Positions 46,363 to 63,545 are shown, counted from the stretch's first letter. The stretch: 64,000 nucleotides of DNA from an uncultured Fidelibacterota bacterium (GCA_902526795.1 CABZMF010000001.1:350622-414621), one strand, 5' to 3'. Program-made: numbers and translations. The notes: generated by a model from the letters alone, not told the origin.

Positions 46363-48759
46363 ATGGGGAAAGTCTATAAAATTATTTTATTTGTATTCAC
46401 TTTCATCATTCTAATTAATTTTTTTGTCAATGCTTTCTTAAAACCAACTGATGTTGAGTATGATGGTATTAATCAAGAATTATCCTTGGAAAATGATGTT
46501 GAAGTAATATTTGATAATTATGGTGTACCTAGTGTATTTGCTCTAAACGACTCTGATATGTTTAAAGTAGCAGGTTATTTGGGTGCTAGAGATAGATTGT
46601 TTCAAATGGCCTTTTTAAAATATGCATATAAAGGTCAACTCAGTGCTGTAGTTAATGATACACTTTTTACAGAAGATCGTTTTTTAAGAACACTTGGTTT
46701 TGAAAAAATTGCTCAGAAAACTTTGAACAAAGTACCTTTAGATATTCTCGCACACTTAGAAGACACGTGTTATGGAATAAATACCTATGTTCAAAGTCTC
46801 TCTCCATCAGAATATCCGCTTGAATTTAAATTATTACAAATAGATGAACTCCCTACTTTTGAACCTCTTGATATTGTTGCATTAAGTACAATGATGGCTT
46901 GGGAATTGCAAGGAGGATGGGATTCTGAATTATTTTTTGGAGCAATAAATGAACAACTTGGTCCAGACTATTTATCAGAAATTTTACCATCTTATGATCC
47001 AAATTTTGTTACTATTTCTTCAAATGACGTGTTACTAAAATCATTCAAGCAGTATGCCAGTGATACTGAAAATTTGAGAAATTTATTAAAAACTGATAGA
47101 GATGGTTACGGTTCTAATGCATGGGCAGTTTCTGGAACAAAAACCAAATCTGGTAAGCCTTTACTTGCTAATGATCCACATTTAGCATACAATTTACCTC
47201 CTTGGTGGTATGAGATTCGTTTAAAAAGTGATAATTATAATTTTGGAGGTTATGGATTGTATGGTATTCCATTACCTGTTATTGGACATAACGAAAATAT
47301 TGGATGGGGCTTTACTAATGTCATGACAGATGATATGGATTTTTATATTGAATTATTAAATGAAGAACAAACACAATATTATGTCGATGGTAAATGGAGA
47401 AATTTAAAAATTGAAGAAGAAGAACTTGTTCTAAAATCAGGCTCTAAGCGTAAAATTATTATTAGATCTACGCATAGAGGTCCTATCATATCAGATATAC
47501 ACCGAGATGCAAAAGCTATTAATAAAGCAATATCTTTTAGATGGACAGAATTCGATGCATTCGATGAAACTACTGGTTTATTTATGCTTGCAAAAGCGTC
47601 AAACTGGGAGGATTTTAATGAAGCTTCAAAATTATTTGGAGCACCTGGGCAAAACTGGACCTATGCTGATAAAGAAGGAAATATTGGATGGAGACCAAGC
47701 ACAAAGATTCCTATTAGACTTGATGCTGATAAACTTGTCCCTTTTGACGGAACAACAACAAAGCATGATTGGCAAGGTTATATTCCTTTTGATGAAATGC
47801 CATACTCTTTTAATCCTGAAAAAGGATATATTTCAAATGGTAATAACAAGATTGTAGGCGATGAATACCCATATTATATATCCAAATATTGGGCTGACCC
47901 AAGTAGAGCTACTCAAATTGATAAAAGATTGAAGACGGATACAAAATTGTCTTCTGAAGATATGAAATCAATTTTAAATGAAATCACTGCTCCCTTTGGC
48001 CAACAATACGCTCCCCTTTTTGTTCAAAATTATTCAACAGGTTTTTCTGATAACGCAGATAAAATTCATGAAATGCTTAAAGATTGGGATGGTATTGAAT
48101 CATTAGATTCAACTGGGGCTGTTGCATTTCATGCAATTTACATTCATCTTGTCCAAAATATATTTCAAGATGAGTTACAGAGCTTTGGTAGTGGATCATT
48201 TGATACATTTTATAGTCTTAAATATATAAGGACACAAGCAATTAGAAGCATTTTTGATGGTAGTGCAAATCTTTGGGTAGATAATGTTACAACTTCTGAT
48301 AAAGAGACACTTAATGATATTGTGAATAAGTCTTTTGAAGACGCATTTAATTTTTTAGAAAATAAATATGGAAATCCTTTAGAACTTGTTTGGGGAGATA
48401 TTCATCAAGTTACTTATGAACATAGATTGGATGCAGATCCATTAGTAAAGAGATTAATTAATTTTAGTGTTGGACCATTCCCAATGTCAGGCTCAGAAAT
48501 GACTCCTAGAGCTGCAAGCTATTCTGTCAGTAAGCCTTTTAATGTTCGAGCAGGTTCATCAATGAGAAGAATAATTGATTTTTCAAATTTTGATAATGGT
48601 TTTAGCATCCTTCCAACTGGTCAATCTGGACTGTTTAGATCAAAACATTATAGCGATCAAACAGATATGTATAATAGGGGAGAATTCAAACCATTTATGT
48701 TTTCTTACGATGCTGTAAATTCTTCTAAATCTTCAAAATTAGTTTTTAAATCAAAATAA
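46363..48759 (+). CDS. Penicillin acylase family Ntn-hydrolase (S45), membrane anchored
   Basis: DxYGVP, DRLFQM, GSNAW (N-terminal nucleophile Ser), ANDPHL, GQSG. Confidence 0.93.
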   Translation: MGKVYKIILFVFTFIILINFFVNAFLKPTDVEYDGINQELSLENDVEVIFDNYGVPSVFALNDSDMFKVAGYLGARDRLFQMAFLKYAYKGQLSAVVNDTLFTEDRFLRTLGFEKIAQKTLNKVPLDILAHLEDTCYGINTYVQSLSPSEYPLEFKLLQIDELPTFEPLDIVALSTMMAWELQGGWDSELFFGAINEQLGPDYLSEILPSYDPNFVTISSNDVLLKSFKQYASDTENLRNLLKTDRDGYGSNAWAVSGTKTKSGKPLLANDPHLAYNLPPWWYEIRLKSDNYNFGGYGLYGIPLPVIGHNENIGWGFTNVMTDDMDFYIELLNEEQTQYYVDGKWRNLKIEEEELVLKSGSKRKIIIRSTHRGPIISDIHRDAKAINKAISFRWTEFDAFDETTGLFMLAKASNWEDFNEASKLFGAPGQNWTYADKEGNIGWRPSTKIPIRLDADKLVPFDGTTTKHDWQGYIPFDEMPYSFNPEKGYISNGNNKIVGDEYPYYISKYWADPSRATQIDKRLKTDTKLSSEDMKSILNEITAPFGQQYAPLFVQNYSTGFSDNADKIHEMLKDWDGIESLDSTGAVAFHAIYIHLVQNIFQDELQSFGSGSFDTFYSLKYIRTQAIRSIFDGSANLWVDNVTTSDKETLNDIVNKSFEDAFNFLENKYGNPLELVWGDIHQVTYEHRLDADPLVKRLINFSVGPFPMSGSEMTPRAASYSVSKPFNVRAGSSMRRIIDFSNFDNGFSILPTGQSGLFRSKHYSDQTDMYNRGEFKPFMFSYDAVNSSKSSKLVFKSK

Positions 48760-48763
48760 GTAT

Positions 48764-48792
48764 TTGCAAAATTTTATTTTATGTTATAATAT
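48764..48792 (+). promoter_or_regulatory. Putative promoter of trp leader
   Basis: TTGCAA at 48764; TGnTATAAT at 48782-48790 overlapping TAATAT at 48787-48792, which lies 6 nt before the leader GTG. Confidence 0.6.
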
Positions 48793-48798
48793 TTTCTC

Positions 48799-48858
48799 GT
48801 GAAAAATAGTTTAAAAACATGGAAATGGTATTTTCAAGTCGGGGGATCTGTCTTGTAA
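48799..48858 (+). CDS. trpL: trp attenuator leader peptide MKNSLKTWKWYFQVGGSVL
   Basis: 19-aa ORF with W-K-W-Y-F upstream of a terminator and trpE. Confidence 0.88.
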   Translation: MKNSLKTWKWYFQVGGSVL

Positions 48859-48883
48859 GCCTTTTCTACGTTAACAAGATTCT

Positions 48884-48910
48884 AAAACCCCGTTAATCGG
48901 GGTTTTTTTT
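48884..48910 (+). terminator. trp attenuator intrinsic terminator
   Basis: AAAACCCCG-TTAAT-CGGGGTTTT stem-loop with T8 run, 7 nt before the trpE ATG. Confidence 0.92.
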
Positions 48911-48917
48911 ATATATA

Positions 48918-50399
48918 ATGAAAAATAAATTAACAAAAAAAGATTTTAATTTGCTTGCAAAAGATGGAAGAAAGGTTGTTCCTTTTTTCAAAAGAATAAT
49001 AGCAGATACTATTACACCTATTGCAGCTTGGGCGAATTTATCAATGCATTCCCATTATGGATTCATTCTTGAATCCGTTGAGAAGGCAAAGAAAAATGGT
49101 AGATATTCTTATGTTGGTATAAATCCATCAAGGGTTTTTGAATATGAGCAGAAGACTTTATTTGAGGTTGTAAATGGTGAGCGAAAAAAGATAAATGCTA
49201 ATTTATTTGATTTTTTAAAAAATTTAAATGATTCATATAAAAGTCAAAAACTGGATCATCTTCCACATTTTACAGGAGGTATTGTTGGTTATTTTGGATA
49301 TGAAATGATTGACTTTTTTGAAAATGTTCCAGTAAAAAAAACCAAATATTTACAGATACCTGATTCAAAATTTATGCTTTTTGAAGACATTATTGTTTTT
49401 GATCATTTAAATGGTGATGCTATAGTAGTATCAAACATCACTCTTAACAGAGATGAAAATTTAAGTGTTCTTTTCGATGAAGCTAATTCAAGAGTTGATT
49501 CTATTGGAAATTTACTACATTCAAATCATGAATTTAGAACTCCACTAGTAACAAAATCATTTCCTACAACCTCTAACTTTAAAAAGAGTGAATTTGAGAA
49601 AATTGTAAATAAAGCAAAAAATTATGTTAAGTCTGGCGATATTTTTCAAGTTGTCTTAAGTCAAAGATTTGAACGTAAAACCTTGTCAGAACCTTTGAAT
49701 GTTTACAGAGCATTAAGGTCTATTAACCCTTCACCATATATGTTCCATTTGAAAATTGATTCATTCGATGTTATAGGTGCTTCTCCTGAGCTTATGATAA
49801 AAGTACAAGAAGGTGAAGTTGAAATTCGTCCAATTGCTGGTACTAGATTGAGAGGTAAAAATTCTGTTGAGGACAAAAAAAATGCTCAAGATTTGTTAAA
49901 TGACAAAAAGGAGTTAGCTGAACACTTAATGTTACTTGATTTAGGAAGAAATGATGTCGGAAAAGTTTCTGAATTCGATAGCGTTAAAATTAAAGAAAAA
50001 ATGAATATAGAGATGTATTCACATGTTATGCATATTGTTTCAGATGTTAGAGGAAAACTTATGAAAGATAAAAATATTTTTGATGCTTTAAAAAGTGGTT
50101 TTCCTGCTGGGACAGTTTCAGGAGCACCAAAAATTAGAGCAATGGAGATAATTAATGAATTAGAAAATGATAGTAGAGGTGTTTTTTCAGGAGCTATTGG
50201 TTTTATAGATTTTAATGGGAATTTAAACACTTGCATTTCAATAAGAACTATGATTTTAAAGGACGGAATTGCATACTTTCAAGCTGGAGCTGGTATTGTT
50301 TATGATTCTATTTCATCAAAAGAGTATGACGAAACTGTAAATAAAGCAAAAGTCATGAATGCTGCAATTGATCTTGCTGAAAATGGGTTGATTAAATGA
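48918..50399 (+). CDS. trpE: Anthranilate synthase component I
   Basis: ILES, GRYS, GDIFQVV, NPSPYM, ASPE, PIAGT, EHxMLxDLGRND, GTVSGAPK. Confidence 0.96.
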   Translation: MKNKLTKKDFNLLAKDGRKVVPFFKRIIADTITPIAAWANLSMHSHYGFILESVEKAKKNGRYSYVGINPSRVFEYEQKTLFEVVNGERKKINANLFDFLKNLNDSYKSQKLDHLPHFTGGIVGYFGYEMIDFFENVPVKKTKYLQIPDSKFMLFEDIIVFDHLNGDAIVVSNITLNRDENLSVLFDEANSRVDSIGNLLHSNHEFRTPLVTKSFPTTSNFKKSEFEKIVNKAKNYVKSGDIFQVVLSQRFERKTLSEPLNVYRALRSINPSPYMFHLKIDSFDVIGASPELMIKVQEGEVEIRPIAGTRLRGKNSVEDKKNAQDLLNDKKELAEHLMLLDLGRNDVGKVSEFDSVKIKEKMNIEMYSHVMHIVSDVRGKLMKDKNIFDALKSGFPAGTVSGAPKIRAMEIINELENDSRGVFSGAIGFIDFNGNLNTCISIRTMILKDGIAYFQAGAGIVYDSISSKEYDETVNKAKVMNAAIDLAENGLIK

Positions 50400-50959
50400 T
50401 ACTTGTTATTGATAACTACGATAGCTTTACTTACAATCTTGTGCAATATATTGGTGATATAAAGAAAGATATTGTTACCAAAAGAAATGATGAAACATCC
50501 TTAAAAAACATCAAAGAAATTAATCCTTCCCATATAGTTATTTCTCCTGGACCTGGAAGACCTGAAAATTCAGGAAATATTGTTGAAGTCATTCAACATT
50601 TTTATAAAAAAATTCCAATATTAGGTGTTTGTCTTGGACACCAGGCAATTGGATGTGCTTTTGGTGGTGAAATTGTTCAGGCAAAAAAAATTATGCATGG
50701 TAAGGTTTCAAATGTAAATCATTTTGGCTCAAAATTATTTAAAGGTATTAATGATAATTTCAATGCCACTAGATATCATTCACTGATTGTCGACAAAGCT
50801 TCTTTACCTACTTGCTTAAAGGTAATTGCTGAAACTGATAACAAAACCATTATGGGTCTTAAACACAAGACTTCAAATCTTTATGGAGTACAATTTCACC
50901 CTGAATCGATTGCTACAAAAGACGGAAAAGTCATAATTAAAAATTTTTTGGAGATATAA
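50396..50959 (+). CDS. trpG: Anthranilate synthase component II
   Basis: IDNYDSFTYNL, SPGPG, GVCLGHQ, RYHSL, QFHPES. Confidence 0.96.
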   Translation: MILVIDNYDSFTYNLVQYIGDIKKDIVTKRNDETSLKNIKEINPSHIVISPGPGRPENSGNIVEVIQHFYKKIPILGVCLGHQAIGCAFGGEIVQAKKIMHGKVSNVNHFGSKLFKGINDNFNATRYHSLIVDKASLPTCLKVIAETDNKTIMGLKHKTSNLYGVQFHPESIATKDGKVIIKNFLEI

Positions 50960-51955
50960 ATGATTGATTTAATAAAAAAGGTTGTAAAAAAAGAAAACTT
51001 AAATGAAAAAGAAGCTTTTGAAATTATGTTTGATTTAATGAAAGGAAATTTAGATGATATTCAAATTACAGCTTTATTAGTTGGTTTAAGGTCAAAAGGA
51101 GAAACAGTTGATGAAATCACTGGTTTTGCTAAAGCAATGCGAAAAACTATGATTGGATTAAATCTTGATTTTCCTGCTATTGATATGTGTGGTACTGGTG
51201 GAGATTATTCTGGAACATTCAATATTTCAACTGCATCATCAATAGTTGTAGCTGGAGCAGGAATAAAGGTAGCCAAGCACGGTAATAGATCTATGACATC
51301 AAAGTCAGGTTCAGCTGATGTTCTTGAAGCATTAAACGTGGATATAAATAAATCAATTGAAAACTGTATTCGAAGTTTAGAAAAAAATAATATCTGTTTT
51401 ATGTTTGCTCCGAATTTCCATCCAGCTGTAAAAAATGCTATGAATGTTAGAAGTACGTTAAAAATTAAAACAGTTTTCAATATTTTAGGACCATTATGTA
51501 ATCCTGCAAATGTTAAAAATCAGGCAATGGGAGTGTTTGAACCATCATTGACTGAAATTCAAGCAAAAGTTTTAAAAAATTTAGGTTCAAAAAATGTTAT
51601 GGTTTTTAATGGAGATGATGGTCTTGATGAGCTAACTACAACTTGTGATTCTAATATTACTTACTTTTTAAATGATAGTAAAATTGTCAACCTCAAATTT
51701 GATCCAAAGTCCGTAGGAATTTCACTATCAAAACTTGAAAATTTAAAGGGTGGTACTTCAAATATTAATGCAAAAATTATTTTGGATATTTTAAATGGAA
51801 AAAAAGGTCCTAACAGAGATATAGTTTTGCTAAATGCTGCTGCAGGAATTATGGTTGGAGGTAAAGCAAAATCTATAAAAGAAGGTTATTTTATAGCAGA
51901 AGAATCAGTTGATTCCTTGTCGGCTCTAAAGGTACTTAAAGGTATACAAAAGTGA
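50960..51955 (+). CDS. trpD: Anthranilate phosphoribosyltransferase
   Basis: CGTGGD, NIST, KHGNR, GSAD, GLDE. Confidence 0.97.
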   Translation: MIDLIKKVVKKENLNEKEAFEIMFDLMKGNLDDIQITALLVGLRSKGETVDEITGFAKAMRKTMIGLNLDFPAIDMCGTGGDYSGTFNISTASSIVVAGAGIKVAKHGNRSMTSKSGSADVLEALNVDINKSIENCIRSLEKNNICFMFAPNFHPAVKNAMNVRSTLKIKTVFNILGPLCNPANVKNQAMGVFEPSLTEIQAKVLKNLGSKNVMVFNGDDGLDELTTTCDSNITYFLNDSKIVNLKFDPKSVGISLSKLENLKGGTSNINAKIILDILNGKKGPNRDIVLLNAAAGIMVGGKAKSIKEGYFIAEESVDSLSALKVLKGIQK

Positions 51956-52710
51956 ATATTCTAGATAAAATTTTGAGTCATAAAAAGACAGAAATTGAGA
52001 AAATTCCTGAAATACATTTTGAAAGCTCCAACTTTAAAAGACTCAGTTTAAAAAAAGCTTTAAAAGGAGGCAAAATATCTATTATTGCAGAAATAAAATT
52101 TGCATCACCCAGTGAAGGGATAATTCTTAAAAAGGGTCAACACATTCAAATTGCTAAAGATTATGAAAATGCTGGTGCTGCAGCTATTTCTGTTCTTACT
52201 GATAGAAGATTTTTTAATGGTGATATTAAATTTTTAAAGGACATTAAAAACGCAGTGAACATTCCTGTAATGCAAAAAGATTTTATCATAAGTAAAAAAC
52301 AAATTTTTCAAGGAATGAGCCATGGTTCTGATGCTTTTCTATTAATTACTGAAGCCTTGAACTATAATGACTTGATAGACCTATATAACCTTGGATTAAC
52401 TGAGAAATTGGAATCATTAGTAGAAATTCATGATAGAGAAAATCTTTTAAATATTAATGAGCTTAATCCAATGATCGTGGGTGTTAATTGTAGAAATTTA
52501 AAAAAAATGGAACTTGATTTTTCAAGATTTGAAAGATTTTATCCAAAACTCCCTAAGGATTCGCTTAAGGTTGCAGAAAGTGGTTTTAAAAGTACCAAAA
52601 GAATAAAAATTGTTGAACAACTGGGATATGATGCCATACTTATGGGGACGACTTTGATGAAAAGTAAAAATCCTGGAAAAAAACTAGAAAGAATTATCAA
52701 AGAGTTATGA
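51952..52710 (+). CDS. trpC: Indole-3-glycerol phosphate synthase
   Basis: IAEIKxASPSxG, ISVLTD, KDF, GVNxRNL, AESG. Confidence 0.95.
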   Translation: MNILDKILSHKKTEIEKIPEIHFESSNFKRLSLKKALKGGKISIIAEIKFASPSEGIILKKGQHIQIAKDYENAGAAAISVLTDRRFFNGDIKFLKDIKNAVNIPVMQKDFIISKKQIFQGMSHGSDAFLLITEALNYNDLIDLYNLGLTEKLESLVEIHDRENLLNINELNPMIVGVNCRNLKKMELDFSRFERFYPKLPKDSLKVAESGFKSTKRIKIVEQLGYDAILMGTTLMKSKNPGKKLERIIKEL

Positions 52711-53339
52711 TAGGCTTCAAAATTTGTGGTATAACTAATTACAAAGATGCTTTACATGCTCAAACTGCAGGAGCATCTGCTATTGGCATGATATTTTATG
52801 ATAAAAGCCCAAGGTTTATTGAAATTGAAAATGCAAAGAAAATAATTAGATACACTTCAGGAATAAAAAAAGTTGGAGTTTTTGTAAATGAGAATAAAAA
52901 TATTATTAATGATGTTATAAATGAATTAAATCTTGATGCAATTCAGCTACATGGAGATGAAACACCCGAATTTTGTAACAATTTTAATATTCCAGTTATT
53001 AAAGCCTTATCTGTTTCAAAAAAAAGTGATTTAAATATTATTAATAATTATAATGTACACGCAATCCTCCTTGATAATAAAATAAATGATCAATTTGGAG
53101 GAACTGGTAAAATCTTTAATTGGAAAATAATTGAAAATGCACAATTCAATCTCCCAATTATTTTATCTGGAGGGTTGAATAAGGAAAATATTTTAGATGG
53201 TATTTATCAAATTAATCCTCATGCAGTTGACATAAATAGTGGTGTCGAAAAAAGTCCTGGATTGAAAAGTAAATCGAAAATCTTAAGGATTGTAAAAATT
53301 TTAAAAAAAACAAAAAAAAAGGAGTTTAGTTTTGGATAG
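52707..53339 (+). CDS. trpF: Phosphoribosylanthranilate isomerase
   Basis: KICG, SPR, QLHGDE, GGTG, SGGL, DINSGVE. Confidence 0.95.
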
Positions 53340-54540
53340 TTTAGTAAAAAAGTACAGTATGCCTGATAAAAATGGTCATTTTGAAGAATTTGGTGGAAAA
53401 TATGTTCCTGAAACTCTAATTCCAGCATTGGACGAATTAGAGCAGGAGTACTTAAAGTGTAAAAACGATAAAGATTTTAAAAAAGAATTCTTTAATTTGC
53501 TCAAACATTACGGAGGTAGACCAACTCCATTATACTTAGCTAAAAATATTTCTAAAGAACTAGGTTTTCATGTATGGCTAAAAAGGGAAGATTTAAATCA
53601 TACAGGTGCACACAAAATTAATAATGCCCTTGGACAAATTTTATTAGCTCATAGAATGGGAAAAAAGAGAATCATTGCTGAAACAGGAGCAGGACAACAT
53701 GGTGTGGCAACTGCAGCCGTTGCTGCTAAATTTGGTTTAGAATGTATTGTTTACATGGGAGAGGAAGATATTGAGCGTCAAAAGCTCAATGTGTTCAAAA
53801 TTAACTTAATGGGGGCAAAAGTAATTCCAGTCACATCTGGATCTAAAACTTTAAAAGATGCTACAAATGAAGCAATAAGGGATTGGGTAACAAATGTAGA
53901 AAATACATTTTATATTATTGGTTCTTCTGTTGGACCTCATCCATATCCAATGCTGGTCCGTGATTTTCAATCTGTAATTGGTACTGAAACAAAAAAACAA
54001 TTTAAAGATATAACAAATAATGAATTACCTGACAGGCTTGTAGCATGTGTTGGAGGTGGATCTAATGCTCTTGGTTTATTTTATCCTTTTATTGACGACG
54101 ATGTAAAAATAGTAGGAGTTGAAGCTGCAGGAAAAGGGATTGATACCAATCAACATGCTGCCACCCTTACAAAGGGAGAGTTTGGTGTGTTGCATGGTGC
54201 AGCATCAATGTTACTCCAAAGTATTGATGGTCAAGTTGCTTTACCATATTCCTTATCTGCAGGTTTAGATTATCCAGGAATTGGTCCAGAGCATAGTTAT
54301 CTTCAAAAAACTAAAAGAGTTGAGTATTCATCAGCAACTGATAACGAAGCGCTAGAAGCGTTTAAGTGGTTATCAGAAAAAGAGGGAATTATTCCAGCTT
54401 TAGAAACTGCACACGCTGTTGCTTACTTAAAAAATAAAAAAAATAATATCAAAAAAAATGAACATGTTATTTTGAATTTATCTGGAAGAGGAGATAAAGA
54501 TATAAATACTATAGCAAAGGAATTAGGTATTGAATTATGA
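53332..54540 (+). CDS. trpB: Tryptophan synthase beta
   Basis: HTGAHKINN (PLP Lys), [29 protein letters not shown]. Confidence 0.98.
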
Positions 54541-55298
54541 ATAGAATAAAAGAACTTTTTTCAAAAGATTCTAAAAAATTAATTGTATTTATCACTGCAG
54601 GTTTTCCAAATAAGGACAGCACGAAGGATTTAGTTATGGAAGCTATAAAAGGTGGTGCTGATATGATTGAGATAGGTATTCCTTTTTCAGATCCGCAAGC
54701 AGATGGTCCAGTTATTCAAGCAGCAAATGAAATCGCTTTGAAAAATGGGATTACTCTTCTTGAAATTTTTGAACAGGTGAAAGAGATAAGAAGCCAAACT
54801 GATATCCCTATTGCGCTTATGGGTTATTATAATCCAATTCTAAAAATGGGTACAATGGATTTCATAAAAAAATGCAATGATGCGGAAATAGATGGGGTTA
54901 TTCTTCCAGATTTACCCCTTGACGAATCAGTAGAATTTTGTAATAATTTGAAGGATAAAAATATATCTCCAATACTTTTAGTAGCACCAAATACTTCAAA
55001 AGAAAGAATTAAGAAGATTTCTAATCTTGCAGGTGAACTCATTTATGCAGTAAGTATTTTAGGTATTACGGGGAATGATCTTAGTTCAAAAAATAATTTG
55101 GAAAACTATTTAGCAAAAGTAAAAGAAAATAGTGAAACACCATTTATGGTAGGTTTTGGTATAAGTTCGAATAAGGATGTTAAATGGTTTAATAATTTTT
55201 CAGATGGGGCTGTTGTTGGATCTGCAATTATAAAAAAAGTACTAAAAGATAGAAAAAAGGGTGTTGTTGAAAATTTTGTAAAAAATCTTAAAAAATAA
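54537..55298 (+). CDS. trpA: Tryptophan synthase alpha
   Basis: [17 protein letters not shown], MGYYNP, PDLP, GITG, GFGI, VVGSA. Confidence 0.97.
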
Positions 55299-55339
55299 TT
55301 TTTGTTTTTCTATTAGATTTTTATCACTAATATGCTTTG

Positions 55340-55399
55340 ATGAAAAATTTTAACTACTATTATTTCTATTTTAGATGCAAGGGGACTATAGGCGCCTGA
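55340..55399 (+). CDS. Tyr/Phe-rich attenuator leader peptide MKNFNYYYFYFRCKGTIGA
   Basis: 7 of codons 4-11 are Tyr or Phe; lies upstream of a terminator and the shikimate/Phe/Tyr operon; TAATAT 6 nt before the ATG. Confidence 0.9.
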   Translation: MKNFNYYYFYFRCKGTIGA

Positions 55400-55425
55400 T
55401 AGAATAATTATATCACAAACTATAG

Positions 55426-55458
55426 AAACCCTAGCAGAAAATGTTAGGGTTTTTTTTT
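55426..55458 (+). terminator. aro/phe/tyr attenuator intrinsic terminator
   Basis: AAACCCTAGCA-GAAAA-TGTTAGGGTTT stem-loop (one G:U) with T9 run, immediately followed by GGAGG SD. Confidence 0.92.
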
Positions 55459-55467
55459 GGAGGAATT

Positions 55468-55731
55468 ATGATCGAAATAAATGAAGAAAGAAAAAATATT
55501 GATAATATTGATGACATGGTTTTTGATCTTTTAGTAGAAAGGTTAGATCCTGTTATGAAAATTGGTGAAATAAAATCTAAAAATAACTTACCAATCGAAG
55601 ATTCAAAAAGAGAAAATTCTATCTACGCTAAAATAGATGCAAAATTTTCTGAAAAAGAAGCAAAATATTTAAAGGAAATATACCACAGTGTAATTTCTGC
55701 TTCTAAAAAAGTTGAAGGGAATGAATTATGA
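55468..55731 (+). CDS. Stand-alone chorismate mutase (AroQ class, 87 aa)
   Basis: RxxIDxxD..LLxxR...IGxxK..D.xRE; GGAGG SD at 55459 fixes the start at 55468. Confidence 0.9.
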   Translation: MIEINEERKNIDNIDDMVFDLLVERLDPVMKIGEIKSKNNLPIEDSKRENSIYAKIDAKFSEKEAKYLKEIYHSVISASKKVEGNEL

Positions 55732-57068
55732 GTAAGTGGACTAAAAATTCTTGGGAAAATTTTACTGTTAAACATATTCCTGAATACAAAGATAAAAGTG
55801 CTTTAAAAAAAGCATTAAAAAAAATTGAAAAGTTTCCTCCATTAGTTTTTGCTGGTGAATGCAATAGTCTCAAAGATAAACTTGCTTTAGCAGTTGAAGG
55901 AAAAGCTTTTCTAATTCAAGGTGGAGATTGTGCTGAAAGTTTTAAGGAATTTAATGCCAATAACATTAGAGACACTTTTAGAGTCATTTTACAAATGAGT
56001 GCTATTTTTACCGCAAAAATGAAGGTTCCTGTAATTAAAGTGGGAAGAATTGCAGGTCAATTTGCTAAGCCTAGATCTTCAGACTTTGAAACAGTTGACG
56101 ATAAAACATTACCCAGTTATTTTGGTGATTCGATTAATAGTATTGAATTTTCAGAAGAAAAAAGAGAACCTAATCCTTCAAGGCTTTTAAGAGCATATTC
56201 ACAATCAGCATCTACACTTAATCTAATTAGATCTTTTGCCCAAGGAGGGTTTGCAAATCTAAGAAAAGTAAATTCTTGGAATATGGGTTTCGTTAAAGCT
56301 ACACCAGAGGGAAAAAAATATGAAAAAATAGCTAACCAAATAAATGAATATCTAGATTTTATTGAGGCAATTGGAGTCAATACCTCTTCTGTTGATTATT
56401 TAAATTCCGTTGATTTCTACACTAGCCATGAAGCATTACATTTACCATTTGAATCTGCATTAACAAGAACTGATTCAATTTCTGGTATGACCTTTGCTAC
56501 ATCAGCGCATATGGTATGGATTGGTGATAGAACTAGATTTGTTGACAGCGCCCATGTTGAATATTGTGCTGGAATTAATAATCCTATTGGAATCAAGTGT
56601 GGTCCTAGTCTTGATCCTGAAGAGCTTATAAAGATTATTGATAAAATAAATCCAAACAATGAGCCTGGAAAAATATCTCTAATTTTTAGATATGGTGAAA
56701 ATAAAGTCCATGAAAATTTACCCGGATTAATTGACATCATAAAAAAGCATAGAAAAAAAGTTCTATGGATTTCAGACTCAATGCATGGTAATACTGTAAA
56801 ATCCTCTTCAGGATTAAAAACTAGAGATTTTAGTGCTTTATTAAATGAAACCACAACAGCGATAAAAATTTTAAGAGATAAAGGTTGTCATTTAGGAGGA
56901 ATTCACTTAGAAATGACTGGACAAAATGTTACTGAATGTACAGGTGGAATTTATAAGCTTAGTGATGATGATCTTAATTCAAGATATCATACTCATTGTG
57001 ACCCAAGACTTAATGCAAATCAAGCATTAGAACTTTCTTTTAATATAGCAGAGGAACTAAAAAAATAA
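55728..57068 (+). CDS. Class II (plant/actinobacterial type) DAHP synthase
   Basis: QGGDCAE, GRIAGQFAKPRS, WIGDRTR, GIKCGP, MHGNT, HLEMTG, CDPRLN. Confidence 0.96.
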   Translation: MSKWTKNSWENFTVKHIPEYKDKSALKKALKKIEKFPPLVFAGECNSLKDKLALAVEGKAFLIQGGDCAESFKEFNANNIRDTFRVILQMSAIFTAKMKVPVIKVGRIAGQFAKPRSSDFETVDDKTLPSYFGDSINSIEFSEEKREPNPSRLLRAYSQSASTLNLIRSFAQGGFANLRKVNSWNMGFVKATPEGKKYEKIANQINEYLDFIEAIGVNTSSVDYLNSVDFYTSHEALHLPFESALTRTDSISGMTFATSAHMVWIGDRTRFVDSAHVEYCAGINNPIGIKCGPSLDPEELIKIIDKINPNNEPGKISLIFRYGENKVHENLPGLIDIIKKHRKKVLWISDSMHGNTVKSSSGLKTRDFSALLNETTTAIKILRDKGCHLGGIHLEMTGQNVTECTGGIYKLSDDDLNSRYHTHCDPRLNANQALELSFNIAEELKK

Positions 57069-58319
57069 ATGAAATTTGTTGGAACATTACAACTTCCAGG
57101 TGATAAATCTATTTCACATAGGGCTATTATGCTTTCAGCAATTGCAGATGGAGTAAGTTATGTAAGAAATTTAAATGATGGAGCGGACTTACAATCAACG
57201 ATTAACATTTTAAAACAATGTGGTGCCTCAATTGAGCAAAGAAATAATGAAATAATAATAGATGGAAAAGAACTTCAATCTCCTACAAAAGAACTTGATT
57301 GCGGTAATTCAGGAACTACTACTCGACTCATTGCAGGGTTATTGGCCTCGCAAAAATTAACATTTTCATTAATTGGAGATGAATCATTATCTAAAAGACC
57401 AATGGAAAGAATTATTAGGCCTTTAAAAGAGATGGGATGTAAAATTTCTTCAAATAATGGATTATTACCTTTATCAATAGATGCTTCAGGCGGTATAAGT
57501 TCTTTAGATTTTGATATGAAAATTGCAAGTGCTCAAGTTAAATCGAGTATACTTTTTTCAGCTTTAGGTGGAAACAATGTATCCAGTATTAATGAAATTA
57601 TTCCGACAAGAAATCATTCAGAAATCATGTTAAATAACATGGGAGCATTAATAGAAAGAAAAGGAGATAAAATTGTAGTTCATCCTCTCAAATCAAAATT
57701 AAAATCTATTGACATTTCTGTCCCATCTGATCCTTCTTCTTCAGCTTTTTTTGCTGGTTTGGCCGTTATTAGTAATAATTCAAAATTAAAGTTAACAAAC
57801 GTATTACTAAATGAATCAAGAATAGGGTTTGTTGAGGTTCTAAAAAGAATGAATTGTTTGGTCAAAAAATCAAATGAGTCAATTCATAATGGTGAAAAAG
57901 TAGGAGATTTAACTTTCAGATCATCTAATCTTAAAGCAATAGAAGTCGAGTCTAAAATAATACCATCAATTATTGATGAAATACCAATTTTAGCAGTTAT
58001 TGCAGCTTTTGCAAAAGGAACAACGGTTTTCAATAATGTTGAAGAATTAAAATATAAAGAATGTGATAGATTAAGTGCAATTATACATAATCTAAAAGCT
58101 TTTGGAATTAAGACATATGAGAATAATAATAACTTATTTGTTGAAGGAGGAAGGATAAAAAAAATGGCTGAGATAACCACATTTGACGACCACAGAATTG
58201 CTATGGCCTTCACAATTTTAAGCCTTAATTCTTTCAAAAAGTATAAGCTTGATAACAAAAAATGTGTTGATATTTCATTACCAAATTTTTTTAAATATCT
58301 TGGTGAGGTAACCAAATGA
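57069..58319 (+). CDS. aroA: 3-phosphoshikimate 1-carboxyvinyltransferase
   Basis: PGDKSISHR, CGNSGTTxRL, SAQVKS, DEIP, KExDR, DHRIAM. Confidence 0.96.
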   Translation: MKFVGTLQLPGDKSISHRAIMLSAIADGVSYVRNLNDGADLQSTINILKQCGASIEQRNNEIIIDGKELQSPTKELDCGNSGTTTRLIAGLLASQKLTFSLIGDESLSKRPMERIIRPLKEMGCKISSNNGLLPLSIDASGGISSLDFDMKIASAQVKSSILFSALGGNNVSSINEIIPTRNHSEIMLNNMGALIERKGDKIVVHPLKSKLKSIDISVPSDPSSSAFFAGLAVISNNSKLKLTNVLLNESRIGFVEVLKRMNCLVKKSNESIHNGEKVGDLTFRSSNLKAIEVESKIIPSIIDEIPILAVIAAFAKGTTVFNNVEELKYKECDRLSAIIHNLKAFGIKTYENNNNLFVEGGRIKKMAEITTFDDHRIAMAFTILSLNSFKKYKLDNKKCVDISLPNFFKYLGEVTK

Positions 58320-59134
58320 GATTTGCTGTAATAGGAAACCCAATTGATAAAAGCTTAAGTCCACAGCTCCATGAAATACTTTATAAAAAATTAAATATTT
58401 TAAATTGCTCTTTCGAAAAAATTCTTATTGAAAATGATAAGTTAGATAATTTTTTTAATGATGATTTTGATTCATTTAATGGTATTAATGTTACTATACC
58501 ATTCAAAAGTAAAGTGGTAAAGTTTATAGATGTTATTGATGATGAGGCAAAAATCTTAGGAAATATAAATTGTATTTCAAAATCGAATAATAAGATTTTT
58601 GGATTTAATACTGATAAGTACGGTTTTGATATGTTGTTAATTAAAAATGATATAAATATTAGAGACAGAAGATGTATTATTTTTGGGGCAGGATCATCTG
58701 CGAAAACAGTAGTTAAATGTTTAATTGATAAAGGAGTCGATAAGATTATTATTAAAAATAGATCAATTAATAATGCTCGTAATCTTCAAAATTTTTCAAA
58801 TGAATTAGGCTTTAATAATATAGAACTATTTAATTCTGATCATTTAAATTTTGATATTGCAATTAATACTACTCCAATAGGAATGTATAAAGATGATATA
58901 AATAATTTTTTTGATATTTCATTAAATAAAAATACAATATTAATAGACCTAATATATACATCAAAAGAAACTCTATTTTTTAAAAATTTTGATAAATGCT
59001 CTCAAAAAATTAATGGCATTGATATGTTTATTTTTCAAGCTTTAAAGTCTATTGAAATTTGGAGAGAAACTAATTATAATTTGGATTCACAAATTGAATC
59101 CGTGAGAAAAAAATTGGAGAAAATAAAATGTTAA
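58316..59134 (+). CDS. aroE: Shikimate dehydrogenase
   Basis: GNPxxxSLSP, NVTIPFK, NTD, GAG, NR, NTTPIGM, DLIY. Confidence 0.93.
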   Translation: MRFAVIGNPIDKSLSPQLHEILYKKLNILNCSFEKILIENDKLDNFFNDDFDSFNGINVTIPFKSKVVKFIDVIDDEAKILGNINCISKSNNKIFGFNTDKYGFDMLLIKNDINIRDRRCIIFGAGSSAKTVVKCLIDKGVDKIIIKNRSINNARNLQNFSNELGFNNIELFNSDHLNFDIAINTTPIGMYKDDINNFFDISLNKNTILIDLIYTSKETLFFKNFDKCSQKINGIDMFIFQALKSIEIWRETNYNLDSQIESVRKKLEKIKC

Positions 59135-60288
59135 AAAAAATATCATATATGACTGCTGGCGAATCCCATGGAAAGGGTTTAATTGGTATAATTGAAGGAA
59201 TACCAGCAGGCTTAGAGCTTACAGAAGAATACATTGCAGTTGATCTTTTAAGAAGAATGCAAGGACATGGAAGAGGCGGAAGAATGAAAATCGAAAAGGA
59301 TTTTGCAGAGATCTTTTCAGGGGTGAGACATGAAAAAACTTTGGGTTCTCCAATTTCACTTATCATTAAAAATTTAGATTGGGTTAATTGGGAAGACAGA
59401 ATGGCAATTGGAAAGCCAAAAAAATTACATAAAAAAATAACAATGCCAAGACCCGGACATGCTGATCTTGCAGGAATGATGAAGTATGATTTTGATGATT
59501 TACGAAACGTTTTGGAGCGTTCTTCTGCAAGAGAAACAGCTATGAGAGTTGCAATTGGTGCTATTTGTAAAAGGCTATTAGAAGAGGTTGGAATAGGTAT
59601 TGGTAGTAGAGTTTATCAAATTCATGATATTGTTGATGAAACTCCAGTTTTATCATCCATGTCATTAAAAGATTTAAATCATAACGCTGATAGTTCTCCA
59701 GTTCGATGTCTTAATAAAAAAATCGAAGATAAAATGATAAAAGTAATTGATACAGCAAAGCGTAATGGAGACTCTGTTGGCGGATCATTTGAGGTAGTAG
59801 CATCTGGATTGCCATATGGATTGGGTTCATACATCAATGCAGATGGAAAGCTCCAAGCTAGAATAACTCAAGCTATGATGTCTGTTAATGCTTTTAAAGG
59901 TGTAGAGCTTGGTGCAGGTTTTGCTTCGAGTGCAGCTTTTGGAAGTGAATTACATGATGAAATTCTTATAGAAAATGATAAAATTGTTCGTTCAAGCAAT
60001 AATGCTGGCGGAATTGAAGGTGGTATGAGCAATGCACAACCAATTCATGTTAAGGTTAGCATGAAACCCCTTTCAACATTAGTAAAACCTTTAAAATCTA
60101 TTGATTTAGAAACAATGGAACCAGTTCTTGCTCACAAAGAGAGATCCGATTCTTGTGCTGTTCCAGCTGCATCTATAATAGGAGAAAGCATGCTTGCAAT
60201 CGTACTTGCGGATGCATTATTGGAAAAATTTAGTGGAGATAGTGTTAAGCAATTAAAAAAACATATTGAAAGCAGTGGAAAATATTAA
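59128..60288 (+). CDS. aroC: Chorismate synthase
   Basis: TAGESHG, PRPGHAD, ERSSARET, NNAGGIEGG, ERSD. Confidence 0.97.
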   Translation: MLKKISYMTAGESHGKGLIGIIEGIPAGLELTEEYIAVDLLRRMQGHGRGGRMKIEKDFAEIFSGVRHEKTLGSPISLIIKNLDWVNWEDRMAIGKPKKLHKKITMPRPGHADLAGMMKYDFDDLRNVLERSSARETAMRVAIGAICKRLLEEVGIGIGSRVYQIHDIVDETPVLSSMSLKDLNHNADSSPVRCLNKKIEDKMIKVIDTAKRNGDSVGGSFEVVASGLPYGLGSYINADGKLQARITQAMMSVNAFKGVELGAGFASSAAFGSELHDEILIENDKIVRSSNNAGGIEGGMSNAQPIHVKVSMKPLSTLVKPLKSIDLETMEPVLAHKERSDSCAVPAASIIGESMLAIVLADALLEKFSGDSVKQLKKHIESSGKY

Positions 60289-60787
60289 TCAACTTTACCT
60301 TATTGGAATGATGGGTTCAGGTAAGTCATCTATTGGAAAGTCTCTTTCTTTAAGCATGGGATGGAATCTCATCGATATTGATGATGAAATTTGTAGTCGA
60401 TATAATACATCAATAAATGATTTATTCTTGAAAGGGGAAGAAAATTTTAGAGAAATAGAGTACATTGAGCTTCAAAAGCATATTTTAAAAGAAAATACAA
60501 TTATTGCTGTAGGTGGAGGGGCCGTCACATTTCAGGATAGTTATGACTTTTTAAGTTCAAAACATTGCATTTATCTAAAAACATCTAAAAAAGTATTAAT
60601 TGAAAGACTACAAGGTGACAATTCAAGACCGTTATTGAATGTTCATAATAAAGAAGATGCTTTAGAAAAGATTATGCATGAAAGGTCAAAAAAATACGAA
60701 GAATTGTCAAATATTGAATTAATTACAGATAATAAATCAATTGAGGATAATTGTAATAAAATTATTGAGATGATAAATGTCCAATAA
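60266..60787 (+). CDS. aroK: Shikimate kinase
   Basis: GMMGSGKS, DxD, GExxFR, GGG, RPLL. Confidence 0.94.
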   Translation: MKAVENINQLYLIGMMGSGKSSIGKSLSLSMGWNLIDIDDEICSRYNTSINDLFLKGEENFREIEYIELQKHILKENTIIAVGGGAVTFQDSYDFLSSKHCIYLKTSKKVLIERLQGDNSRPLLNVHNKEDALEKIMHERSKKYEELSNIELITDNKSIEDNCNKIIEMINVQ

Positions 60788-61844
60788 AATAAAAGTTGAT
60801 TTAGGAGATAACAGCTATAACATTAGCTTTGTTGAAGATTTTAAAGATTCAATTGTTAAGTTTGCATTATCAACAAAATCTCAGTGCTTATTGATCACAC
60901 AAGAAAAAATTTTTAATCTACACAAACAAAAATTTGATAAGATTTCTAAGACTCCGAATATTAATATTTTAATGATTAGTGACGGAGAACAAGCAAAATC
61001 ATTTGAATCAATTAATTCCATTGTGAGTGAAATGGCTAAAAATAACTTTGATAGATCCTCTTTAGTTTTTGCAGTTGGTGGAGGAGTAGTTGGAGATGTA
61101 GCAGGTTTTGCTGCATCAATTTTTATGCGAGGCATAAAATATGTTCAATACCCCACAACTTTACTATCAATGGTTGATTCATCTATTGGTGGAAAAACGG
61201 GCATAAATTTAAAAGATGGAAAAAATTTAGTAGGAAGAATATATCAACCTATAGCGGTAGAAGTCGATACAAATTTTTTATCAACTTTACCTAAAAGAGA
61301 CTTCAATGCTGCTTTTGCAGAAGTTATTAAATATGGATTTATTTATGATAAAGATTTATTTGATTATTTAAGCGAAAATTTATCAAATATTAAAAATAAT
61401 GATCTTAATGTTATTAAAAAGATTATAACTCAATGTTGTGAAATAAAAAGTGATATTGTCAGTGAAGATGAAAATGAAAATGAGCTTAGAATGATTTTAA
61501 ATTTTGGACACACCGTTGGACATGCAATTGAGTCTTATACGAAATATGAAGAATTGCTTCATGGTGAAGCGATTTTTTATGGAATGAAATGTGCATTATT
61601 CATATCTAATAAATTTGGAAATTTAAATAAAGATGAATATAAAAAATCTCTTCAATTATTATCAAAATTTGATTTACCAAATCTGAGCATCGATAACAAA
61701 GATATTTTTATTAACTTTGTTAAGAATGATAAAAAATTCAGAGGTAAAAATATTAGATTTATTTTACTAGATGAAATTGGTAAATCCAGAATCAGTAAAG
61801 ATATTACATTTGAACAAATAAAAAAAAGTTTGAGTGTCTTATGA
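60777..61844 (+). CDS. aroB: 3-dehydroquinate synthase
   Basis: GGGVVGDxxGF, PTTLL, DSSIGGKTG, LNFGHT, HGEA. Confidence 0.96.
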   Translation: MSNKIKVDLGDNSYNISFVEDFKDSIVKFALSTKSQCLLITQEKIFNLHKQKFDKISKTPNINILMISDGEQAKSFESINSIVSEMAKNNFDRSSLVFAVGGGVVGDVAGFAASIFMRGIKYVQYPTTLLSMVDSSIGGKTGINLKDGKNLVGRIYQPIAVEVDTNFLSTLPKRDFNAAFAEVIKYGFIYDKDLFDYLSENLSNIKNNDLNVIKKIITQCCEIKSDIVSEDENENELRMILNFGHTVGHAIESYTKYEELLHGEAIFYGMKCALFISNKFGNLNKDEYKKSLQLLSKFDLPNLSIDNKDIFINFVKNDKKFRGKNIRFILLDEIGKSRISKDITFEQIKKSLSVL

Positions 61845-62269
61845 AGTTGATAATTGTTAATGGACCAAATCTTAATTTACTTGGTGAAAGAGAGCCTGAA
61901 ATTTATGGAAGAGAGAGTTTAGAGCAAATTAATACATGGATAAGAAATCATGAATTATGTAAAGATTTAGTAATTGATTTTTTTCAATCTAACTCGGAGG
62001 GAGAAATTATTGATTTTTTACACTCAAAAAGAAATATAGTAGATTATTGTGTTTTAAATGCTGGGGCTTTAACTCATTATTCATATGCATTAAGAGATGC
62101 AATTGTTTCTTCTCAAATTCCAACTGTTGAAGTACATCTATCAAATATTTACAAGCGAGAAAATTTTAGGAAAAATTCGGTTATAAAAAATGTTTGTATG
62201 GAGCAATTTTACGGAGAAGGAAAACAAAGCTATATTAATGGTATCAAGCATATTTTGGAGAAAAAATAA
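61841..62269 (+). CDS. aroQ: Type II 3-dehydroquinate dehydratase
   Basis: NGPNLNLLGxREPxIYG, QSNxEG, THYS, EVHLSN. Confidence 0.97.
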   Translation: MKLIIVNGPNLNLLGEREPEIYGRESLEQINTWIRNHELCKDLVIDFFQSNSEGEIIDFLHSKRNIVDYCVLNAGALTHYSYALRDAIVSSQIPTVEVHLSNIYKRENFRKNSVIKNVCMEQFYGEGKQSYINGIKHILEKK

Positions 62270-62835
62270 TGATAGTCGGCATTCAAGGAATTGAGGGTAG
62301 TTTTAGCGAAGAAGCAGCTAAATCATTTTGTAAAAAGTTTGGAATTAAAAATTTTAAATTTAAATATTTAATTAGCTCTATGAATGTACTCAACAGTGTA
62401 TCAGATAGAACAATTGATACTGGAATATTTGCTATGGAGAATGCTCAAGGAGGAGTCGTAATTGAAAGCGTTGAAGCATTAGCAAAAAACCAGTGTGAGA
62501 TTGTGGATATGTTTTATGTCGAAATAAGTCAAAATTTATTGGCATTAAAGGGTGTTTCTCTAGGAGAGATTGATCAAATTCATTCACACGAGCAAGCATT
62601 AAAACAATGTAAAGATTATCTAGCTGAGAGATTTTGGTCAAAAAAGTTAATTGAGGAAGATGATACTGCAAAAGCCGCCCAGGATTTAGCTGAAGGTAAT
62701 TTGCCTAGAAATGCAGCAGTTATTGCTAGTAGGTTTTCTGCTGAAAAGTATGATTTAAAAATTCTTGATAATGATATTCATGATTTGAAAAGAAATTTAA
62801 CATTATTTTTAGCTGTTAAAAGGCTGGATTTATGA
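62269..62835 (+). CDS. pheA: Prephenate (or arogenate) dehydratase, catalytic domain only
   Basis: QGxxGSFSE, ENxxxG, SHxQALxQC, TAxAA, NxTxF; no ACT domain. Confidence 0.88.
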   Translation: MIVGIQGIEGSFSEEAAKSFCKKFGIKNFKFKYLISSMNVLNSVSDRTIDTGIFAMENAQGGVVIESVEALAKNQCEIVDMFYVEISQNLLALKGVSLGEIDQIHSHEQALKQCKDYLAERFWSKKLIEEDDTAKAAQDLAEGNLPRNAAVIASRFSAEKYDLKILDNDIHDLKRNLTLFLAVKRLDL

Positions 62836-63545
62836 AAAAAGTAAGTATAATCGGTTTTGGTAGATTTGGAGCAATGCTTCACAACTTACTTTCGAAAGGA
62901 TTTGAAGTTGAGGTTTATGATAAAAATCCCATAAATAATTTAGAAGTAAATGAGGTTTCTCTAGATCAGGTGCTAAAAAATGAAACAATTTTTGTTTCGG
63001 TACCAATTAGGGACTTTAAAGATTTAATTATAAATATTTCAAATAAAATAAATCCTGGAAAAACTATCATTGATGTTTGTTCAGTAAAAGTGTTTCCAAA
63101 GAAGGTAATGGTTGAGAATTTGTCGAGAAAAACTGATATAATTGCAACTCATCCATTATTTGGTCCTGATTCATTAAGAGATAGTGGTTCTGTTATGACA
63201 ATGGAAGCTGTTAGGAATTCCTACGAGAGATATGACTTTTGGAAAAATTATTTTGAAAGCCAAAATATCACTATTGAAGAAATTTCTGCTGAGGAGCATG
63301 ATATGATGGCTGCAAGATCACAAGGTTTAACTCATTTCGTTGGGCGAGTTATTGATGATTTTGGAACTAATCAAACAAAAATTGATACGGAAGGTTATAA
63401 GGCTTTGCATAAACTTGTAAACCAAACGTGTAATGATACATGGGAATTATTTGAAGATATACAAAATTATAACCCATATACGGAAAAAATGATTTCAGAA
63501 TTAAATGGAAGTTTCAAAAAAATTAGCGAAATTATAGAAAAATAA
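62832..63545 (+). CDS. tyrA: TyrA prephenate/arogenate dehydrogenase (plant-like clade)
   Basis: GFGRFG, DVCSVK, THPLFGP, HDxxAAxSQxxTH. Confidence 0.9.
   Translation: MKKVSIIGFGRFGAMLHNLLSKGFEVEVYDKNPINNLEVNEVSLDQVLKNETIFVSVPIRDFKDLIINISNKINPGKTIIDVCSVKVFPKKVMVENLSRKTDIIATHPLFGPDSLRDSGSVMTMEAVRNSYERYDFWKNYFESQNITIEEISAEEHDMMAARSQGLTHFVGRVIDDFGTNQTKIDTEGYKALHKLVNQTCNDTWELFEDIQNYNPYTEKMISELNGSFKKISEIIEK

Follow-up and report, generated by a model that had tools for sequence, protein, structure and literature searches.

How does a bacterium with a small genome match the synthesis of tryptophan, tyrosine and phenylalanine to its needs? The question is raised by a 64,000-nucleotide stretch of DNA from an uncultured Fidelibacterota bacterium (GCA_902526795.1 CABZMF010000001.1:350622-414621; hereafter the window, with positions counted from its first nucleotide), in which two operons for aromatic synthesis lie in tandem on the same strand. 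Each operon is headed by a cassette that combines a short leader open reading frame (ORF), rich in aromatic codons, with an intrinsic terminator. The trp cassette (48764-48910) heads trpEGDCFBA, and the aro cassette (55328-55458) heads chorismate mutase-DAHP synthase-aroAECKBQ-pheA-tyrA. We conclude that both cassettes are very probably ribosome-mediated (leader-peptide) transcription attenuators.

Two leader cassettes and their proposed mechanism

A first-pass annotation of this DNA had described the two cassettes as twins of identical layout. We re-read and recomputed every detail of that anatomy and found it accurate. Both cassettes have TAATAT 6 nt before an RTG start, a peptide of 19 codons that opens with M-K-N, and a G-run at codon 15 (GGG GGA at codons 15-16 of the trp leader, GGG at codon 15 of the aro leader). 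In each, AAACCC begins at +86, counted from the start codon's first base (48885 and 55426), and the terminators end in GGG followed by T8 in the trp cassette and by T9 at 55450-55458 in the aro cassette. The inner stems named in the annotation, TCTTGT/ACAAGA (trp) and CTATAG/CTATAG (aro), are both present. The trp leader can have no earlier start because an in-frame TAA occupies 48787-48789. The sensor codons had been called swapped. Trp codons in one leader do face Tyr/Phe codons in the other, but the exchange is not a clean one because the trp leader retains Tyr-Phe straight after its Trp codons (Table 1).

We folded 16 leaders at three ribosome positions and observed one fold logic throughout. 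With a ribosome on the sensor codons, or with the 3' arm of the terminator omitted, the G-rich end of the ORF and a short inner helix paired with the C-rich 5' arm of the terminator (16/16). With a ribosome on the stop codon, which lies within or beside the 5' arm of the antiterminator, the terminator alone formed (16/16). The trp antiterminator folded at -19.5 kcal/mol when the terminator 3' arm was left out. The trp cassette also formed a 5' hairpin in prefix folds (-13.5 to -16.1 kcal/mol), as did the relative L003 with a different 3' strand; the equivalent in the aro cassette is only weak (-7.3 kcal/mol). Three features of leader-peptide attenuators were found in both cassettes, namely a short ORF enriched in codons of the pathway, an intrinsic terminator 5' of the first gene and, in silico, the corresponding placement of the antiterminator.

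From this arrangement we infer how the cassettes would work. Each would consist of a sigma-70-type promoter, the 19-codon leader ORF, an antiterminator 5' arm laid over the last codons and the stop, and a terminator before the first gene. When charged tRNA is abundant, the ribosome would reach the stop codon and mask the G-rich 5' arm, leaving the C-rich segment to join the terminator, and transcription would end. When Trp-tRNA (trp cassette) or Tyr/Phe-tRNA (aro cassette) is scarce, the ribosome would stall at the upstream sensor codons. The G-rich arm would then pair with the C-rich arm of the terminator, and polymerase would enter trpEGDCFBA or the operon that runs from chorismate mutase and DAHP synthase through the aro genes to pheA-tyrA. 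The trp 5' hairpin would favour termination of an untranslated leader, as in E. coli trpL. Two points weigh against this account: the folds are thermodynamic predictions only, and, in the trp leader, a ribosome halted at Tyr11 or Phe12 would mask some of the G-run. The aromatic codons further upstream are therefore probably the effective ones, and not all of the run may sense.

The cassettes are conserved well beyond the window genome (G000), a Marinimicrobia (SAR406) assembly of 14 contigs and 914,868 bases with a completeness of 92.6% and a G+C content of about 30%, whose TrpE is 93-94% identical to that of close Marinimicrobia/Neomarinimicrobiota relatives. A trp leader lies 5' of trpE in all 12 genus loci. 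The eight distinct sequences among them share 19 codons, WxWYF, TAATAT at 5-6 nt, a T-run at +104 and the promoter TTGCAA-17-TAATAT; W8 and W10 are invariant, with variation at codons 2, 3, 4, 5, 7, 9 and 16. An aro leader of 18-19 codons, with a sensor run of Tyr/Phe only, is present in 27/27 genus loci that have enough upstream sequence, a count that leaves out three further loci that are partial or cut by a contig end. Its start codon lies 6-8 nt 3' of the -10 hexamer, and its T-run at +107 to +111 from that start. Across the alignment of these 27 sequences, the sole internal indel in the ORF is exactly 3 nt. The aro terminator is paired in 98.5% of cells and the antiterminator in 90.4%, with three and two pairs, respectively, altered on both sides, and when the pairing partners were shifted by 1-3 columns as a control, 24-69% were paired.

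Order-level relatives (TrpE 51-58% identical) carry a leader at 8/8 trpE loci. These leaders have 21-25 codons, a hexamer TAATAT, TAAGTT or TAAATT at 7-9 nt (8/8), a T-run at +119 to +129 and sensor runs in which Trp, Tyr and Phe are mixed (YYSWYWFF, QYYWWYF, FFSYFWYF and others). The geometry that the annotation had called fixed is thus constant within the genus but not across the order. Its reading of the cassettes as attenuators fared better, since the leaders are conserved and their sensor codons match the content of the operon across the order.

We considered whether the hairpins might do no more than terminate or insulate operons, with short ORFs that arose by chance in A+T-rich DNA and sense no amino acid. 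A G+C content of 30% does make codons for Tyr, Phe, Asn and Lys common, and the aro hairpin is also the first terminator 3' of trpA. However, relatives with 75-93% and 52-62% protein identity, some of them richer in G+C, retain the ORFs together with their reading frame and aromatic runs; the lone indel is 3 nt, and the Trp codons are invariant amid varying neighbours. Genome-wide, 3,747 ORFs of 15-25 codons begin with ATG, and only two of them, one being the aro leader, have seven or more Tyr/Phe within eight codons. Each terminator, moreover, sits between a promoter and the operon that it would silence, and we regard this explanation as extremely improbable. Hardly better placed is the idea that a trans-acting factor, such as a TRAP-like protein, a T-box-type uncharged tRNA or another RNA-binding protein, selects the hairpin in place of the ribosome. 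Sensor-codon content follows operon content, GAG/UAG repeat arrays were not seen in either leader, and searches for TrpR, the TrpBP/TRAP family and T-box found none in the 92.6%-complete genome, with positive controls in the expected species; we therefore consider such a factor very unlikely. The same searches are in keeping with the annotation's description of the control as repressor-free.

The string TAATAT-N6-RTG occurs 50 times among 1.83 million genome positions. A scan for TAnnnT-N5-9-start followed by a 9-40-codon ORF and a terminator returned about 60 candidates, and sensor-like codon runs were present only in the two cassettes. The shared M-K-N opening is uninformative because 24 of 891 long ORFs, trpE included, open likewise. 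The second Tyr/Phe-rich short ORF was rejected as a cassette: it consists of a poly-Phe run, neither a terminator nor a gene follows it, and it appears to lie antisense to coding sequence.

Table 1. Cassette features and adjoining operons, in window positions
Feature	Position	Strand	Remarks
-35-like hexamer TTGCAA, trp-leader promoter	48764..48769	+	17 nt 5' of the -10 hexamer
-10-like hexamer TAATAT, trp cassette	48787..48792	+	6 nt 5' of the GTG start
trp leader ORF, MKNSLKTWKWYFQVGGSVL	48799..48858	+	GTG start at 48799; 19 codons + TAA (48856-48858)
trp sensor codons Trp8-Lys9-Trp10-Tyr11-Phe12	48820..48834	+	
trp 5' hairpin ('1:2'), predicted	48816..48872	+	Trp-codon region pairs with sequence just 3' of the stop; encloses the antiterminator 5' arm; from folds
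trp antiterminator, predicted	48840..48892	+	CGGGG..TCTTGT (48840-48856, into the stop codon) pairs with ACAAGA..CCCCG (48874-48892); from fold
trp intrinsic terminator	48884..48910	+	9-bp G+C-rich hairpin 48884-48906 + T8 48903-48910
trpE, trpG, trpD, trpC, trpF, trpB, trpA	48918..55298	+	NCBIfam equivalogs
-10-like hexamer TAATAT, aro cassette	55328..55333	+	6 nt 5' of the ATG; 30 nt 3' of the trpA stop
aro leader ORF, MKNFNYYYFYFRCKGTIGA	55340..55399	+	ATG start at 55340; 19 codons + TGA (55397-55399)
aro sensor codons Phe4, Tyr6-8, Phe9, Tyr10, Phe11	55349..55372	+	
aro antiterminator, predicted	55376..55436	+	GGGG..CTATAG (55376-55391) pairs with CTATAG..CCCT (55420-55436); from fold and alignment
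aro intrinsic terminator hairpin + T9	55424..55458	+	also the first terminator 3' of trpA
chorismate mutase, class II DAHP synthase, aroA, aroE, aroC, aroK, aroB, aroQ, prephenate dehydratase, prephenate dehydrogenase	55469..63545	+	

Relationship of the two cassettes and history of the locus

To compare the cassettes we used two covariance models, R1, made from the aro leaders, and R2, made from nine order-level Trp/Tyr/Phe leaders and containing no genus sequence. R2 matched both cassettes at full length and in register, the trp cassette at 34.8 bits (48797-48911) and the aro cassette at 32.2 bits (55338-55458), with E-values of about 1e-6 that are rough because the calibration was shortened. 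These were the two top matches genome-wide; the next reached 12.4 bits in the window and up to 21.2 bits in the genome, the latter in coding sequence. Three weaker genome matches of R2 lie inside open coding frames and were rejected as cassettes. When applied to E. coli, R2 scored the trpL terminator alone (14.5 bits) and gave no match to pheL. As judged by these matches, both cassettes belong to one lineage-specific aromatic-leader family. An aro leader was also found in a 2.4-Mb genome of another family, f8 (L178, G113:C76:80507-80621), where R1 scored it at 133.9 bits, like genus members; mis-binning of the contig or a recent transfer would account for it.

The first-pass annotation had proposed that one module was duplicated and re-programmed. 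The evidence is divided. The two cassettes might be of separate origin, with the equal geometry (19 codons, +86) imposed by the ribosome footprint and by genome streamlining. Profile hidden Markov models (HMMs; nhmmer) of each leader did not match the other cassette at E-values up to 100, and R1 scored the trp cassette, its best non-self match in the window, at only 20.6 bits (E 0.41). Aligned without gaps, the cassettes are 39% identical against a background of 28 +/- 4%, a value that 0.7% of random windows reach, and the identical positions cluster in functional motifs (the hexamer, start, G-run, AAACCC and T-run). Nor is equal geometry alone proof of copying, because Trp and His leaders of a single genome can be near-equal, as they are in G028 (24 codons and +123 versus 23 and +123) and, taken together, in G028 and G026 (23-24 codons, T-run at +123/124). 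By contrast, R2 recovers both cassettes in full and misses the His leaders despite their similar lengths, finding nothing beyond a terminator in E. coli. With R1, Trp/Tyr/Phe leaders of order-level relatives score as high as 40.9 bits, and positionally homologous leaders have shed their Trp codons in two other families. On these sequence comparisons, common descent through a tandem or lateral copy appears somewhat likelier than convergence, and separate origin is a substantial but lesser possibility.

The arrangement in larger relatives suggests where the pair came from. In G033, G031, G032, G035 and G060, chorismate mutase is followed by a single Trp/Tyr/Phe leader and then by trpEGDCFBA-pheA-tyrA-DAHP synthase-...aroA, E, C, K, B, Q, and the terminator of that leader is the sole strong one found on the same strand over 18 kb. 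In 15 of 17 order-level loci, DAHP synthase has coding sequence immediately 5' of it (tyrA in 10 loci checked by tblastn). No leader was found 5' of chorismate mutase in eight upstream regions from order-level relatives, and none was found 5' of DAHP synthase. As read from gene order and leader content, the window pair is the split form of this single leader, which heads one supraoperon in the larger relatives. The window leaders differ from it in being shorter, in being two and in dividing the sensor codons between them; chorismate mutase has its place behind the second leader, and pheA-tyrA stand at the end.

Leader content changes along with gene content elsewhere in the order. Where the aro cluster lacks trp genes (G025, G040, G067, G037 and G075), a Tyr/Phe leader of 17-19 codons, with no Trp in its run, stands before pheA and heads a pheA-tyrA-DAHP synthase-aroA cluster; the G075 leader has one Trp, inside the G-run. 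Trp codons are present or absent as the trp genes are present or absent, and sensor codons therefore follow operon content. A quick DAHP synthase tree, which comprised 41 of 47 loci and left out the window's own row, did not place these Tyr/Phe-only lineages together. Its starred branches force at least two changes, and branching at the family level is unresolved in it.

Of the 25 genus genomes searched, 5 yielded trpE, and several of those without it are 95-99% complete; DAHP synthase was found in 33 of 38. In trp-less genus genomes, the gene directly 5' of the aro leader is the acylase-like one that lies 5' of the trp leader in the window. An orthologue of this gene is upstream of the aro leader in most of the trp-less genomes shown, and L090-L093 have other neighbours. 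The trp-carrying clade is sister to 22 trp-less rows of the tree (SH-aLRT 95). These observations fit a single loss, or a single gain, of the leader and trpEGDCFBA as one block. No intermediate genera were available, as the family contains only this genus in the searched collection.

Three observations concern individual genes of this region. The acylase-like gene 5' of the trp leader (46363-48759) encodes 798 amino acids and has a weak match to PvdQ-type acylase (42 bits). The window DAHP synthase (55728-57068) has DSMH where the conserved motif is DPMH in 41 relatives. In a trp-carrying relative, the match to DAHP synthase (G020:C1:263823-265147) is spread over three frames and interrupted by numerous stop codons, which indicates a degraded gene or a poor assembly.

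The annotation had suggested that further copies of the cassette may head other amino acid operons. Two pattern scans, three profile HMMs and R2 found none in the window genome, where there seems to be little else to regulate: searches of the 92.6%-complete assembly did not find hisG or leuA, and for ilvB found only a fragment-like 76-bit match on contig C9. From this gene content, the organism looks auxotrophic for histidine and the branched-chain amino acids, with the full aromatic pathway retained. In larger relatives this suggestion was partly borne out. All ten hisG loci of order-level relatives (L116-L125) have a His-rich leader ORF of 19-25 codons with 3-7 His, a G-rich tail and a strong terminator (for example MRHNHHHHHPVH... 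and MTQRHHIHHHHC...), and eight of the ten have TTGnnn-18-TAnnnT-9/10-ATG. One asnB leader was found, in G060 (L164, minus strand, ~3667-3830 of the reverse complement). Located directly 5' of asparagine synthase B, it has 33 codons with four consecutive Asn (…FNNNNMSGGEAL), the promoter TTGATT-17-TAAGAT-5-ATG and a terminator, and R2 scores it at 18.4 bits. An asparagine leader-peptide attenuator is not known to have been described; no search aimed at one was made. For ilv/leu, no leader was found within 1.5 kb of nine ilvB loci or up to 8 kb upstream in five genomes; in these relatives leuA lies downstream within the same cluster as ilvB.

Promoter geometry and the start of translation

The annotation had taken the cassettes to be leaderless. 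We examined 53 distinct leaders for the pattern TTGnnn-(16-19)-TAnnnT-(4-11)-start and found it in 47 (trp 16/16, aro 23/27, His 8/10), with the -10 hexamer at 5-10 nt from the start codon. The 23 aro leaders with the pattern are those of trp-less genus genomes, which have TTGnnn-17/18-TAAACT or TAATAT-6/7/8-ATG. In relatives richer in G+C, the -10 hexamer forms a conserved island against its surroundings. With 5-7 nt between hexamer and start codon, transcription would be expected to begin at or beside the start codon; a gap of 8-10 nt would leave 2-4 nt. Because a -10 hexamer lies 6 nt 5' of each window leader and neither has a Shine-Dalgarno sequence, the mRNA from which the two peptides are translated is probably leaderless or nearly so.

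Several observations weigh against a leaderless start. The missing Shine-Dalgarno sequence is weak evidence because only 151 of 723 long ORFs (21%) have an SD-like core. The ATG of trpE, which lies 7 nt 3' of the trp-terminator T-run (48903-48920), has no such sequence itself; that of chorismate mutase, at 55469, is preceded by GGAGG. TAnnnT is found 5-9 nt 5' of 172 of the 723 long ORFs. No TTG -35 element is present at 16-19 nt in the aro cassettes of the window and its three nearest relatives (4/4 of the trp-carrying clade). In the same four genomes 41 nt separate trpA from the aro leader, and no terminator intervenes; most of the leader's transcription may therefore start at the trp promoter, in which case the leader would not be leaderless. 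The aro promoter of this clade may be weak, with part of its transcription coming from the trp operon. Lastly, a marine metatranscriptome library contains an exact 157-nt contig (X3 record 17, 48689-48845) that takes in the final part of the acylase-like gene, the predicted promoter and the trp leader as far as its 47th nt. Since it crosses the predicted start at 48799, it must come either from transcription that continues out of the gene upstream or from DNA present in that library. The five RNA runs searched, from two studies and in the form of assembled contigs only, matched no more than 0.19 of the sampled words, and the cover of the window that four of them provided was patchy.

These points would be accommodated if the cassettes were attenuators with transcription starts farther upstream, the aro leader being reached by read-through from the trp promoter past trpA and the leaders being translated by internal initiation that needs no Shine-Dalgarno sequence, a mode that seems widespread in this genome. 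We think this rather unlikely. Against it stand the full TTGnnn-17/18-TAnnnT promoter 5-10 nt from the start codon in 47 of the 53 leaders (among them every trp leader and, from genomes without trp genes, 23 aro leaders), the persistence of the hexamer as an island in G+C-richer relatives, and its retention (TAATAT or TAAAAT) at 6 nt in the aro leaders of the window's own clade.

When the readings on mechanism, descent and start are joined, a tentative history can be drawn, in which a leaderless attenuator for all aromatic amino acids may have been copied and sub-functionalised (Trp versus Tyr/Phe) as a supraoperon of about 17 genes was split in this genome-streamlined genus. Trp codons would have been lost readily, in at least three families, after departure of the trp genes from the operon; through the split, the trp module would have become expendable by itself and then been lost from most of the genus; and the tandem arrangement would permit cross-control.

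Known systems and biological meaning

In E. coli, trpL and pheL follow the Yanofsky model, in which an ORF rich in codons for the end product and mutually exclusive antiterminator and terminator helices precede trpE or a chorismate-mutase gene. The window cassettes resemble them in the short sensor ORF, the exclusive helices and the position, and the trp cassette has an extra 5' hairpin over its sensor codons. They differ in several respects: the -10 hexamer is 6 nt from the start, a Shine-Dalgarno sequence is missing, no TrpR was found, the Trp leader also contains Tyr and Phe codons, and the second leader governs the common pathway together with the Phe and Tyr branches. There is also no match at the Rfam level. 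No Rfam family reached its gathering score in the window, and Trp_leader (RF00513) had no match at E-values up to 10. The best leader score was that of Phe_leader (RF01859) on the trp cassette, 24.7 bits against a gathering score of 55, and other weak matches were driven by the terminator. The cassettes are not members of the Rfam Trp_leader or Phe_leader families.

A pair of aromatic leader-peptide attenuators in one organism has a precedent. Corynebacterium glutamicum is described as having a Trp leader, trpL, before trpEGDCFBA and a Phe-Tyr-Phe leader, aroR, before a DAHP synthase operon (PMC11802643, summarising Neshat et al. 2014). The same summary reports that aroR responds to Phe and not to Tyr, and that the repressor LtbR is used in addition (PMC11802643). 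As far as that account goes, the window differs from C. glutamicum in phylum and in arrangement, the C. glutamicum loci being unlinked and the window cassettes tandem. The C. glutamicum leader is itself said to be leaderless.

Leaderless leader peptides are known from other bacteria. Deinococcus deserti has 14, one of them on the trpEGD mRNA with a transcription start at -1 (PMC4007540); another has been reported for Corynebacterium diphtheriae ilvB (PMC5784534); and mycobacteria have leaderless poly-Cys short ORFs that act on translation by sequestering the Shine-Dalgarno sequence (bioRxiv 10.1101/834739). The sensory ORF starts at, or no more than 1 nt from, the transcription start in the Deinococcus, C. 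diphtheriae and mycobacterial leaders, and the mycobacterial case does not work through an intrinsic terminator. The starts of the Deinococcus, Corynebacterium and mycobacterial leaders are reported as mapped, whereas those of the window cassettes are predicted from promoter geometry only. The first-pass annotation had known of no description of such a family in this lineage. We likewise found no paper on leader peptides of Marinimicrobia, but the kind of system is already known elsewhere. What is new here is the split tandem form with divided sensor codons, a comparative series of re-programmed leaders, promoter geometry over 53 leaders and the association with loss of the trp operon from most of the genus.

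Marinimicrobia (SAR406) are uncultured bacteria that abound in the ocean, and we found no published account of their gene regulation. In the 0.9-Mb streamlined genome studied here, all aromatic synthesis is under apparently pure ribosome sensing, with no known repressor detected. Three-amino-acid leaders, leaders without Trp codons after the trp genes had left, and the split pair form a natural series in which the evolution of attenuator specificity can be followed and which yields codon-swap predictions. If the joint history outlined above is true, read-through trp transcripts would enter the aro leader untranslated and could favour its antiterminator, so that tryptophan starvation would raise expression of the common pathway. 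The split marks the tryptophan makers of the genus (5/25 searched), and is thereby relevant to surface-ocean auxotrophy and cross-feeding.

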